Source: a virus
Lineage: Duplodnaviria > Caudoviricetes
Strand: one strand, 5' to 3'
Virus record (IMG/VR): IMGVR_UViG_3300023301_000010
Span: 1 to 57,650 of that record
DNA: 57,650 nt
Below, one piece after another: positions 5,971 to 7,760 of this stretch. Position 1 is the stretch's first letter. Each line of letters starts with the position of its first letter. The notes under the pieces were generated by a model, which was given only the letters and a program-made list of their open reading frames with translations, had not been told where the DNA came from and searched no databases. Both the position numbers and the translations under genes were made by a program.

Positions 5971-7347
5971 CTACGAGGGGGTGTACGAATAGGTTCCGGA
6001 AAGACTTCCGAGCCCAAAGTTGGGATTCATTGCGACGGAGTTCAGTCCGCGATACCCGATATAGGGCGACGGAGATGTTTGTGTCAACCCTCCATTGCTG
6101 GGAAGGTACCGAGAAAGGTCGTACCCGATAGGGGCGACACTGGCGATGCCTCCTCCGGAGGAAGTGCCGCTAACAGGAGTGGTTCCGCTCAAAGGACCAC
6201 CACCGTTGGGGGTGATGGCGTACCTGTTGTAAGGGGAAGTTCCGCCAGAACCGCCGTCTCCTCCACCCATAACGCCGTCAGGGTTGCTGAAACCATCCGG
6301 ATTTCCGAAACCGCTGAAGTCTCCGCTTGCGATCGCATCTGCCAAAGACTGTAAACCGCCGCCCACTGTGGGGCCTCCAAAAAGACCCGAAGCAGTGTTG
6401 ACCAGTCCAAGCCCCGGAACGAATGAAACAGCCATATTAGCGACAGTTTCGACAGGTCTGCCAAGAGCTTGAGAAAACTCGGCCCCAAAGTAACCAAGCG
6501 GGTCTGTAAGGAGGGAAGGCGTTTCAACCGTCGGAGTAGTCGCAGGGGCCGCAGCAACCGATGTGGTGCCGATAGCAGACGGAGCACTGGCAGTGGTGGT
6601 GGCAGAAGGCGACGTAGTCGCTCCATACGCCATAGACGCCCCGGCAATACCGGGATTACCCGCCATCATGCCGGGGGTACCCATCCCGATCGCTTCCTGC
6701 ATCCCCATAGCGACCTGTCCCGCCGGACCCATCATCGCAGCATTGGTCGCGGTGACGTTACCGTAGGCGTCAACCATTCCTAGGCCGATGCTCATCGGAG
6801 AAGGAGCGGCCATCATTCCGGAGTACTGGCTCATAGCGTAGCCGGGGACGGCAGTAGTAAGACCGACTTGAGGGCTAACCACCCCGAAAGCTTGACTCAT
6901 GTTGAAACTGCCGAGCATCCCGGCGGCTACCCCGCTCGGGTCACTAAGAGAAGTACCAAACCCGGTAGAAGTTCCGGCACCGAAACCTTCGGTGTCTGGT
7001 CCCGTTCCAGTAATACCCCCGAGGCCGAAGCCTCCCATGCTGATATCGCCAATACCCAAGTTGCCTACGGCATTGGAAACGTCCATGCTTGCGGGAGCAG
7101 TTCCGACTTGCCCAGTTACTCCACCGAGACCAAAAGAGCCGTACCCCGTATCTCCAAGGGCAGAACCGGCATTGTCTGCAGAGGCATATCCTGCGGTATT
7201 GTCTGCATACCCACCGACAACGCCCATCGCGGCGCTGTTGTCATACCCACCCCATCCGCCCGTGGTTTCTGCCGACAATCCGCCGTCAGAGTTGCTGCCG
7301 TCCCCCCCGCGAGGGATCTCAGTCAGAAGGAGACGTTTCCAGTTCAT
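5971..7347 (-). CDS. Gly/Ser/Ala-rich low-complexity protein, putative acyltransferase substrate or internal virion protein
   Basis: ATG overlaps the acyltransferase stop (TGATG); about 458 aa with one Lys; hydrophobic stretch VANMAVSFVPGLGLV. Confidence 0.75.
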   Translation of the reverse strand: MNWKRLLLTEIPRGGDGSNSDGGLSAETTGGWGGYDNSAAMGVVGGYADNTAGYASADNAGSALGDTGYGSFGLGGVTGQVGTAPASMDVSNAVGNLGIGDISMGGFGLGGITGTGPDTEGFGAGTSTGFGTSLSDPSGVAAGMLGSFNMSQAFGVVSPQVGLTTAVPGYAMSQYSGMMAAPSPMSIGLGMVDAYGNVTATNAAMMGPAGQVAMGMQEAIGMGTPGMMAGNPGIAGASMAYGATTSPSATTTASAPSAIGTTSVAAAPATTPTVETPSLLTDPLGYFGAEFSQALGRPVETVANMAVSFVPGLGLVNTASGLFGGPTVGGGLQSLADAIASGDFSGFGNPDGFSNPDGVMGGGDGGSGGTSPYNRYAITPNGGGPLSGTTPVSGTSSGGGIASVAPIGYDLSRYLPSNGGLTQTSPSPYIGYRGLNSVAMNPNFGLGSLSGTYSYTPS

Positions 7348-7760
7348 CAAAGACAAACCCGGTTGATGCGGACCTTGCCACCGTATTTGCGGCGAAAGTA
7401 GATATTCTTTCCTTTGTAACCCAGTTCACAAAGCTTGGCACGCAGCAATCTTGCTACGGGAGTTCCGTTCCCTTGAGGGGACAAAACGTCTACTGCCCAA
7501 ATCCTTCCGCCCTCGGTAGTCCAGTCTGTAGGCTGAAGTTTTCGACTCCCGTCGATAAAACCACGCGATGCTTCCTCTGAAAAGAAGCCATAGGTGGCGA
7601 ATCCTGCAACACGGCCTTCCGTATTGGTGATGTAGACCACTTGTCCCAAAGAAACAGGGGGATACAGTAACCGAACAACGTCCGTAATCGTCCACGAGCG
7701 ATGGAGCGGGGACATCGTCATCAAAACAGATGCCTGAACCACAAACTCGGCGGCGATCAT
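7347..7760 (-). CDS. Toxin-activating acyltransferase, HlyC/RtxC (TAAT) family
   Basis: SPLH catalytic motif, GFATYGF, DWTTEGGRIWAVDVLSPQG (compare DWxSGxRxWxIDxIAPFG), C-terminal YFRR. Confidence 0.85.
   Translation of the reverse strand: MIAAEFVVQASVLMTMSPLHRSWTITDVVRLLYPPVSLGQVVYITNTEGRVAGFATYGFFSEEASRGFIDGSRKLQPTDWTTEGGRIWAVDVLSPQGNGTPVARLLRAKLCELGYKGKNIYFRRKYGGKVRINRVCL

Follow-up and report, generated by a model that had tools for sequence, protein, structure and literature searches.

Toxin-activating acyltransferases (TAATs) are known as lysine acyltransferases, and the substrates known for them fall into two classes, the RTX toxins and CdiA of class IV. These enzymes use acyl chains carried by acyl carrier protein (acyl-ACP), and a His/Asp dyad is their catalytic pair, as given in PMC8510554. 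The TAAT CdiC is encoded directly upstream of cdiA and lipidates CdiA, promoting binding to the outer membrane of the target cell; class IV CdiA is described as a surface filament, exported by two-partner secretion and acylated on the internal Lys1467, its lipid is proposed to enter the target's outer leaflet and to aid recognition, and CdiA relatives without an acyltransferase are described as being without the acceptor lysine (PMC8510554). The HlyC family is not confined to the acylation of toxin lysines, as MceI and MchD exemplify (PMC3281104; PMC6071977). Here we describe a TAAT gene of a marine-type tailed phage that is followed at once by the gene of a Gly/Ala/Ser-rich protein, its partner, in the IMG/VR virus record IMGVR_UViG_3300023301_000010, the entire length of which (57,650 bp, estimated completeness 97%) is called the window below. 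As judged from the sequence comparisons, the two genes almost certainly form a conserved module, and the partner is probably the substrate of the TAAT. The cassette comprises the following elements.

7347-7760, minus strand: TAAT (HlyC/ApxC-like acyltransferase) of 137 aa, recognised by Pfam PF02794, phrog_20210 and fold
5971-7347, minus strand: Gly/Ala/Ser-rich partner of 458 aa, recognised by composition and homologues; candidate acyl acceptor and candidate ejected virion protein
7309-7347, minus strand: N-terminal leader of the partner, MNWKRLLLTEIPR, containing its sole lysine, K4 (codon 7338-7336)
7297-7308, minus strand: start of the glycine run, G14 G15 D16 G17, with G14 and G15 the sole invariant columns of the N-terminal alignment
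6355-6456, minus strand: conserved core of the partner family, PVETVANMAVSFVPGLGLVNTASGLFGGPTVGGG, hydrophobic and glycine-zipper-like (coordinates checked)

In common with HlyC, CyaC and ApxC and their RTX protoxins, the phage pair has an enzyme of the same Pfam family, with the same predicted fold and His/Asp dyad, an enzyme gene directly upstream of that of the partner, and presumably acyl-ACP as the donor. It differs in that the window contains no RTX repeat, type I secretion system (T1SS) or Gly-Lys site within an acylation domain, that the enzyme is about 35 aa shorter, and that the conserved feature of the phage partners is an N-proximal glycine run, while lysine may not be the acceptor in many of them. 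The absence of an RTX toxin, a GGxGxD array and a T1SS, already pointed out in an earlier reading made from the sequence only, was borne out: no window open reading frame (ORF) of at least 80 aa contains a GGxGxD motif, neither the PF00353 RTX repeat nor PF13437 (HlyD) was found in the window, and no ABC, C39 or HlyD gene turned up in the subset of window ORFs that was scanned. With CdiC and CdiA the locus shares a TAAT just upstream of a large delivery protein, and partner homologues without the enzyme are also without the N-terminal feature, the same logic as that of Lys1467 and CdiC; the candidate site in the phage partner is, however, N-terminal rather than an internal lysine. Lacking RTX repeats and an exporter, and having a partner of another kind, the phage pair is not a classical RTX or CdiA system; its closest working analogue is CdiC/CdiA.

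The identification of ORF 7347-7760 as a true TAAT is virtually certain. The HlyC/CyaC hallmarks named in the sequence-only reading are all in place, namely S17-P-L-H20, the 'RIWAVDVLSPQG' strand with D91, and R123-R124. Against Pfam PF02794 (HlyC) the protein scores 55.3 bits (cut-off 25; E 7.8e-15), with residues 12-131 lying on positions 7-123 of the 127 in the profile, and the match is repeated directly on the window DNA at 54.6 bits; the protein also matches phrog_20210 (E 6e-19) and, by sequence, ApxC (4whn, E 2.2e-6). In ApxC the counterparts of H20 and D91 are the His and Asp of the SPLH and FIDWIAPFG motifs; together with S17, P95 and G97, these two residues are invariant in ten phage relatives. 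A single-sequence AF2 model was poor (predicted local distance difference test, pLDDT, 42.9) and was superseded by a model built on a 10-sequence alignment of phage homologues (pLDDT 85.8), which predicts the TAAT fold with confidence: the best Foldseek match is ApxC (4whn_A, TMq 0.81, root-mean-square deviation 2.3 over 134 columns, E 2.9e-9), followed by generic GNATs at E values of at least 1.6e-2. The Atlas model of the same protein gives a TM score of 0.88 to a TAAT cluster. Relative to ApxC the window TAAT, like the phage enzymes generally, is a short form with about 35 aa fewer. An NCBIfam scan of the three cassette proteins (the TAAT, the partner and the 188-aa protein encoded just upstream) returned no match.

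The two genes are translationally coupled. At their junction, ...CTTTGATGAAC, the TGA stop (7349-7347) and the ATG at 7347 have one base in common, exactly the TGATG overlap that had been noted; an automated ORF listing starts the partner at TTG 7356 (461 aa), but the N-termini of homologues favour the ATG. The partner proved to be as first described, a protein of about 458 aa rich in Gly, Ser and Ala (G 97, A 52, S 51, T 42 and M 22, counted from the ATG), with one lysine (K4, in a W-K-R and not a G-K context), neither Cys nor His, and with MNWKRLLLTEIPRGGDG as leader and VANMAVSFVPGLGLV as hydrophobic segment. It has no recognised domain in Pfam, PHROGs or NCBIfam and no confident fold (Atlas model with a predicted TM score of 0.19; Atlas search best score 0.82, no usable neighbour). 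Double-glycine leaders of class II bacteriocins and microcins have a conserved pattern of hydrophobic and acidic residues that ends in GG, and are cleaved by a C39 peptidase-ABC exporter. The leader of the partner was also considered as one of this canonical type, which was rejected by eye, the hydrophobic and acidic spacing before G14-G15 misfitting the consensus. An exhaustive phmmer search with the partner over 1.84 billion representatives returned 11 proteins at E<=1e-3, which share a core of about 35 residues, NP...N...VPG.G..NT.SG..GGPT.GG (invariant in the 11 sequences: G314, N317, S320, G324, G325, P326 and G329), and a C-terminal YDL..Y motif; one of them, P0009, has an N-terminal leader nearly identical to that of the window partner. 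A second recurrent motif, ...(T/F)(V/H/M)LA(H/Y)(I/M)(S/T/N)P(x)E...LK..GG.G..NP.TGL.EF, matched no Pfam family and sits in the N-terminal parts of partner-family and neighbouring proteins (P0003, P0004, P0011, L014:7473-8450 and L085:7910-8273; L numbers denote the surveyed loci).

A search with the core motif identified 22 IMG/VR phage loci, on which the pairing can be followed from the partner side. PF02794 is present in five of these records, in all five immediately upstream on the same strand and overlapping the start of the partner. Among the other 17, the upstream gene is visible in 12 and is never a TAAT, and none of these 12 proteins (0/12) has a leader/Gly-run start, all beginning instead with other, larger domains; in the remaining five (L005, L013, L015, L018 and L025) the contig is cut and the upstream gene unreadable, L025 having the leader with only 82 nt upstream. 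From the enzyme side, an alignment of the TAATs of this group yielded 11 loci, which add three with readable downstream DNA (L032, L035 and L039), in the order TerL, small protein, TAAT, partner, portal, as well as three in which the contig ends directly after the TAAT (L034, L036 and L037). In all nine TAAT loci of the group with readable downstream DNA, a count that takes in the window and L012 (partner frameshifted, leader readable), the enzyme is followed by a homologous partner with a Lys-bearing leader of 13-16 aa and then a glycine run, for example MINKYSLWNMAVFGGGGGD, MMNIIEKYMLQNIPRGGGGG and MMMFGWQKLLLCNIPRDGG. The leader lysine occupies one column in 7/8 aligned N-termini, the window having R5 there and K4 one column earlier. 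TAAT and partner travel together between two genome positions, the TerL side and the portal side. In L012 (2684-2790) the partner gene is frameshifted just past the leader and glycine run; the tract that encodes poly-G may have been misread in sequencing, or the gene may truly be broken. Three other searches were empty: tblastn of TAAT and partner against 50,697 phage records gave no match, a related-locus search with each window protein singly gave no loci, and a word-seeded search for TAAT homologues found only the query.

The arrangement extends well beyond this group. A TAAT profile search gave 29 family proteins at E<=1e-5; as the 23-sequence TAAT alignment was too diverse for a pattern search, a sub-alignment of ten diverse TAATs was used, and it led to 47 further viral loci. 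In 45 of them the gene that starts between -11 and +3 nt from the TAAT stop encodes a protein of 464-1023 aa with a Gly-tagged start, L043 and L077 being the exceptions. This start takes one of two forms, either MGG(G)n (e.g., MGGGGGDTTNVTNTGLGDDQYQ, MGGSPPSPPPPPPS and MGGGSPAPAPPPP) or a conserved leader of 17-22 aa followed by a run of at least GG (e.g., MIYNPFMPSNRFDSYIARGGGG and MSRHLYNPFMPSVHFRDQAVFGGGG). Two cultured phages also carry the pair. In roseophage CRP-235, gp29 (start MGGGGGD) comes next after gp30 (PF02794, 57.5 bits), and in pelagiphage HTVC112P, gp46 (PF02794, 59.9 bits) lies between 'minor tail protein L' and gp47, a tail protein of 1102 aa starting MGGIVEAIV; in both phages a Shine-Dalgarno sequence, identified by eye, backs the start of the partner. 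Altogether, 56 of 58 phage TAAT loci are directly followed by a Gly-tagged partner, and the partners belong to at least four families, so the linkage on which the sequence-only reading relied, kept in 9/9 loci of the group, is not peculiar to the window phage.

The N-termini of the partners were tabulated for 55 loci (excluding L012, L043, L077 and three cut loci), which gave 42 distinct sequences, and were compared with 365 mechanical ORFs of at least 150 aa from both strands of the same loci, a control that includes spurious ORFs. GG occurs within 25 residues in 42/42 partners vs 36/365 controls, GGG within 27 residues in 32/42 vs 3/365, and an MGG start in 20/42 vs 1/365. The phage TAATs form 31 clusters at an identity of 90%, a number that falls to 12 at 60% and to 3 at 40%. 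On a tree of these enzymes the clades track the N-terminal type of the partner with the minimum possible number of changes, four (shuffled mean 24.1); this is a matter of consistency and not of co-evolution, since relatedness alone could yield it.

Bacterial relatives of the enzyme differ, with a glycine run after the TAAT in only 3/24 loci from bacterial genomes, one of which is a phage-like contig of 4.2 kb while the other two encode small peptides in Natronospirillum. In these two loci of Natronospirillum operosum (L105:103-900 and L107:34-1030) a TAAT relative precedes small Gly/Ser-rich peptides starting MSKLYAQHNLMTTELDAAYGGGGGS..., double-glycine-leader-like in appearance, possibly an acyl-modified microcin-type system. 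On two Pseudanabaenaceae contigs from metagenome-assembled genomes (L098 and L100) a TAAT relative lies about 100 nt upstream of proteins of 801-953 aa with RTX-like repeats of the GGSGNDT type and the start MGKPK, an arrangement that looks like the classical RTX one and contrasts with the phage pattern. Classical TAATs activate RTX toxins, and such RTX-like neighbours of bacterial relatives in two cyanobacterial assemblies might suggest that the phage gene is a moron acting on a host protein, for instance a host RTX protein, with no relation to phage proteins. This is extremely improbable, because the TAAT is translationally coupled within a late structural operon, its pairing with a phage protein family is kept in 56/58 loci, and it moves together with the partner between the TerL and portal sides.

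Three roseophages, CRP-738 (L090:1823-2278), CRP-3 (L091:1336-1800) and CRP-212 (L092:1406-1855), have at the TAAT position a gene of about 150 aa outside PF02794, directly preceding leader-GGGG proteins homologous to the CRP-235 partner. The depositors of CRP-738 label it 'putative acyltransferase'; it has no Pfam match, an hhalign probability of 0.2% against TAATs and no relative in the PDB. It may represent replacement of the enzyme by a different family; should it prove to be an acyltransferase, the arrangement of enzyme and Gly-tagged partner would have outlasted the exchange of one enzyme family for another, strengthening the reading of the partner as a substrate. The same gene leaves room for another view, in which the N-terminus of the partner is modified, but without a long fatty chain or to another end than membrane anchoring, for instance by a short acyl block that shields an injected protein from N-end-rule or aminopeptidase attack, or by a different ligation of the MceI kind. 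The TAAT fold is GNAT-like, the N-alpha-acetyltransferases Naa10 and NatB are among the weaker fold matches, the phage enzymes are about 35 residues short of ApxC, and the HlyC-family MceI takes part in a non-fatty-acyl ligation (PMC6071977). Nevertheless, the best sequence and fold matches are specifically TAATs, described as acyl-ACP users (PMC8510554), and the aromatic/hydrophobic leaders and the glycine-zipper-like segment fit membrane activity, so that we consider a modification of this type unlikely.

If the partner is the substrate, the acyl site would lie within its first four residues in the window phage, since the N-terminal amine and K4 are its sole primary amines; that the site is in the N-terminal segment at all we put at even chances. 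Three places had been proposed at the outset, K4, an N-terminal glycine bared by cleavage, and the KGG motifs of other virion proteins. K4 suits the window phage and its own group, throughout which the leader lysine is kept, and suits other partners less well: many leaders of the YNPFMP type have no lysine, and in partners of the MGG type the first one occurs at positions 15 to 385. The N-terminal glycine is kept alive as a candidate by the glycine run, the only universal feature of the phage TAAT partners. Two interpretations fit these data. Each clade may acylate the N-terminal peptide of its own partner, on lysine where present and otherwise on the alpha-amine, with the glycine run as a flexible tether. 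Alternatively, the acceptor may always be the N-terminal glycine, bared by removal of Met in the MGG partners and of the leader in the others. Two points favour the latter: the leader-GGGG proteins found in CRP-3, CRP-212 and CRP-738 are homologous (25-31% identity) to MGGGGGD proteins of the CRP-235 type, and AatD provides a bacterial precedent for acylation of an N-terminal glycine (PMC7943197); against it, no protease family, such as a maturation protease for GG sites, turned up among the window ORFs scanned, and the residue ahead of the glycine run varies (R, F, W, L, Y, K or E). That the phage TAATs are N-terminal glycine (alpha-amine) fatty-acyltransferases with an acyl-ACP donor, and that the resulting lipopeptide on its glycine tether is the membrane-breaching end of ejected proteins, is a tentative idea, and rather doubtful. 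A complex prediction combining the TAAT alignment with the first 60 residues of the partner alignment scored 0.01 and weighs neither way.

Siderophore-microcins are Gly/Ser-rich and leader-bearing, AatD is a membrane, Lnt-like CN-hydrolase, and picornavirus VP4 and reovirus mu1N are N-myristoylated penetration proteins that have an M-G- start, are modified by a GNAT-fold acyltransferase and have the lipidated peptide freed at entry, so as to break through a membrane. All three bear some likeness to the phage pair. In MceI/MchD and MceJ/MchC an HlyC-family enzyme works on the terminus of a protein or peptide, although the modification there is C-terminal, the moiety is salmochelin and a SelO-like partner is required (PMC3281104; PMC6071977), none of which is present in the window. 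AatD is a dedicated acyltransferase that N-acylates the N-terminal glycine of CexE/Aap exposed after leader removal, but it is reported to act during secretion by the Aat system (PMC7943197), whereas the phage enzyme is a soluble TAAT with no signal peptide or exporter evident. For the myristoylated VP4 and mu1N, the enzyme is the host NMT with myristoyl-CoA, while the phage encodes its own TAAT-type enzyme, and the likeness is a putative functional analogy.

The third proposed site is related to the motif phi-A-(K/x)-G-G-phi-(V/I), which recurs in virion-module proteins of the group both with and without a nearby TAAT. In the window it is found on the minus strand in the 188-aa protein (RFAEGGMV, 7871-7894), in the protein encoded at 46587-48266 (GFAKGGIV) and in those at 388-654 and 87-386, and it is also present in L011, L017, L020, L026, L032, L035 and L039, with MKKGGMA, NMAKGGHV and AAKGGMI as further examples. 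It occurs at the C-termini of several partners and in small proteins upstream of the TAAT, where A-x-GG-x-V is found in all readable cassettes of the group. The 188-aa protein was considered as a homologue of the upstream proteins of 95-111 aa and rejected, phmmer giving no significant match and the short motif alone being in common. The enzyme might thus acylate other virion proteins, with the lysine of phi-A-K-G-G-phi-V as the candidate, while the partner is a mere neighbour or a MceJ-like adaptor; its favour comes from the motif's presence in the three other window proteins just named and, for most cassettes, in the small protein encoded upstream (NMAKGGHV, AMAKGGSV, SFAKGGSV or ELAKGGII), and from the operation of the HlyC-family MceI/MchD in complex with a second protein (PMC3281104). 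However, the lysine is replaced by Glu in the 188-aa protein and in the C-terminus of the L032 partner, and the motif also turns up in proteins whose contigs yielded no TAAT. Conservation of the upstream gene does not extend from one TAAT group to another, and the partner families share little but the N-proximal glycine run, a pattern more in keeping with a substrate tag than with a cofactor. We consider such a role of the enzyme distinctly unlikely, and the motif, which may be a docking or processing site, ranks low as an acylation site because it is found on TAAT-less contigs and its lysine is not conserved; this part of the original proposal has lost ground.

Peptidoglycan hydrolase and 'polyvalent' domains are expected of proteins that are packaged and injected with the DNA. 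Homologues of the partner carry such domains: P0004 opens with an SLT lytic transglycosylase domain, and some core-motif proteins are large, with Phage_lysozyme2 (L022) or ART-PolyVal (L010). The core-motif protein is always portal-adjacent in the 22 loci, being located either between TerL and portal or past the portal, and 20 of these loci hold homologues of the TerL, portal, GroES-like or capsid genes of the window, with L014 matching the Gly-rich protein only and L021 matching none. In L005, the closest relative (capsid E 2.5e-176), exactly the slot that the cassette occupies in the window is filled by an SLT-type version of the core-motif protein. PHROGs, on ten proteins of the partner family, gave only a weak endolysin match and collagen-like tail-fibre repeats. 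We read the window partner as a putative ejection protein because its core-motif homologues carry SLT, tail-lysozyme or ART-PolyVal domains, although it has no recognised domain itself; the suggestion that it is ejected and acts at entry has thus gained support, and on this sequence evidence its chances are about equal either way. The portal-side protein of 1531 aa at L010:4191-8786 combines the core motif with an ADP-ribosyltransferase domain of the ART-PolyVal kind (E 1.1e-34), which makes it a candidate for an effector that an HTVC023P-type phage injects.

The lipidated partner could also stay in the infected cell as a membrane-anchored assembly or lysis factor. Acylation by a TAAT must be cytoplasmic, where acyl-ACP is. 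In CRP-235, as in the MGGSP and MGGGGGDT groups, a lysozyme-type gene has the pair directly upstream of it, and beside that gene are small membrane or lipobox proteins that look spanin-like by eye. Retention in the cell is nevertheless decidedly unlikely, given that the pair is portal-adjacent in the window's group and far from the muramidase gene (39550-40182), that the partner in HTVC112P is a large tail protein after 'minor tail protein L', and that the SLT, tail-lysozyme or ART-PolyVal domains of core-motif homologues are typical of injected proteins. At L061, L069 and L085 (~5780-7910), which represent the MGGSP and MGGGGGDT groups, the genes after the pair encode a small membrane protein, a lysozyme-like protein whose C-terminal segment is hydrophobic, and a further two small proteins, of which one bears a lipobox-like LxGC; by eye the stretch has the look of a lysis cassette.

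The explanation that we favour, by a narrow majority of our belief, is an enzyme-substrate module in which the TAAT acylates the N-terminal segment of an ejected partner and so provides it with a lipid anchor on a glycine tether. During infection the 137-aa TAAT, active on this view, would take an acyl chain from host acyl-ACP and attach it through an amide bond to the N-terminal segment of the protein whose translation directly follows its own. What results would be a Gly/Ser/Ala-rich protein, disordered for the most part, in which a lipidated aromatic/hydrophobic N-terminal peptide is joined to the body by the flexible glycine run. Most likely the partner would be packaged in the head and ejected at infection, because its family is portal-adjacent and elsewhere carries peptidoglycan hydrolase or ART-PolyVal domains, and the acyl anchor, together with the glycine-zipper-like core, may help it to enter or span the host envelope. 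Two of the outcomes that would have refuted the lipidation system outlined in the sequence-only reading did not arise: the TAAT fold is confidently predicted, and the linkage of the pair is conserved. The further steps, from acyl donor and chain length to acceptor atom, packaging and entry, are put here as conditional ones.

Several observations weigh against this explanation. In three partner groups the pair adjoins endolysin- and spanin-like genes (sequences read by eye), which makes a role in lysis or assembly a live rival. Many partner N-termini have no lysine within 30-380 residues, whereas the known TAATs are lysine acyltransferases, and K4 of the window is one column off the lysine conserved in seven relatives. 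Sequence does not reveal the acyl-chain preference of the phage enzymes, which fall about 35 aa short of ApxC. N-proximal glycine motifs of a like form are also present in homologues whose contigs yielded no TAAT (RKRYALGGGD in L023, IIGGGGD in L008 and RFAAGGEA in L022 and L024), so that a glycine run alone is not proof of TAAT dependence or acylation. Finally, the module appears to be dispensable, because four cultured HTVC023P-type relatives are without the TAAT and, in the examined 16-kb regions, without the core motif. These relatives are 023Pt_psg01, HTVC027P, HTVC023P and DSL-LC04: PF02794 was not found in three of the four, nor among eight small ORFs near the portals of all four, and the core motif was not found by a regular-expression search of their 16-kb portal regions. 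In all four the portal-to-GroES stretch is a variable slot of small hypothetical genes, and the cassette occupies the same slot in the window.

The portal of the window is 47-49% identical to those of 023Pt_psg01, DSL-LC04 and the Pelagibacter phages HTVC027P and HTVC023P, and the window is accordingly a near-complete relative of the HTVC023P-type podoviruses. Nearly all its genes are on the minus strand, and a tRNA search of it found none. The order in the head module is TerL, portal, 188-aa protein, TAAT, Gly-rich protein, two small ORFs, GroES-like protein, scaffold-like protein and major capsid protein, and overlaps of 1-4 bases join portal, 188-aa gene, TAAT and Gly-rich gene at the first three junctions past the portal. 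The remaining features of the window are the following, assigned by PHROGs/Pfam where no other basis is given.

10740-12206, minus strand: TerL
8320-10740, minus strand: SU10-type portal (PF23899 SU10_portal and phrog_1216), its stop overlapping the start of the 188-aa gene
7757-8323, minus strand: 188-aa protein, first gene of the coupled run, with the 'RFAEGGMV' motif at residues 143-150
5089-5577, minus strand: GroES-like protein (PF00166 and phrog_3188), far boundary of the variable portal-to-GroES slot
4153-5064, minus strand: scaffold-like protein
2120-3028, minus strand: major capsid protein
45526-46584, minus strand: DNA-ejection protein
55783-56421 and 56729-57418, minus strand: SU10-type adaptors
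39550-40182, minus strand: muramidase

The window TAAT is recorded identically on four contigs, the longest of which, at 115,321 bp, is almost exactly twice the length of the 57,650-bp window, as if a complete and circularly permuted genome had been assembled in the manner of a concatemer.

The notice taken of phage TAATs is confined to annotations, in the figure legend of a pelagiphage preprint (10.1101/2019.12.14.876532) and in the GenBank records of HTVC112P and CRP-235. In the full-text literature, with most subscription journals and supplements outside it, no paper was found on the function of phage TAATs, on their pairing with Gly-tagged proteins, or on lipidation of virion proteins in tailed phages.

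Phage structural-module proteins with an N-proximal glycine run, tied to a TAAT in 56 of 58 phage loci, would represent a possible third class of TAAT substrates besides the RTX toxins and class IV CdiA, and the recurrence of the pair across phages suggests that phages fat-tag their own entry proteins, which has not yet been described. If the acylation is real, tailed phages would lipidate these proteins by means of host acyl-ACP, in parallel with the lipidated penetration peptides of eukaryotic viruses, and this would offer a concrete mechanism for the way in which certain podoviruses and siphovirus-like phages interact with the outer or the inner membrane. Should the N-terminal glycine prove to be the acceptor, the module would be a phage-encoded counterpart of N-myristoylation, a new acceptor chemistry for the TAAT family, and the first case of tailed phages encoding a protein lipidation system that serves virion proteins of their own. 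Relatives of cultured pelagiphages and roseophages carry the module, and CRP-235 (gp30/gp29) and HTVC112P (gp46/gp47), cultured carriers of the pair whose marine bacterial hosts are harmless, make the idea directly testable. For metagenomes, an MGG... or leader-GGGG start right after a small TAAT may serve as a simple rule by which to recognise candidate lipidated phage proteins.

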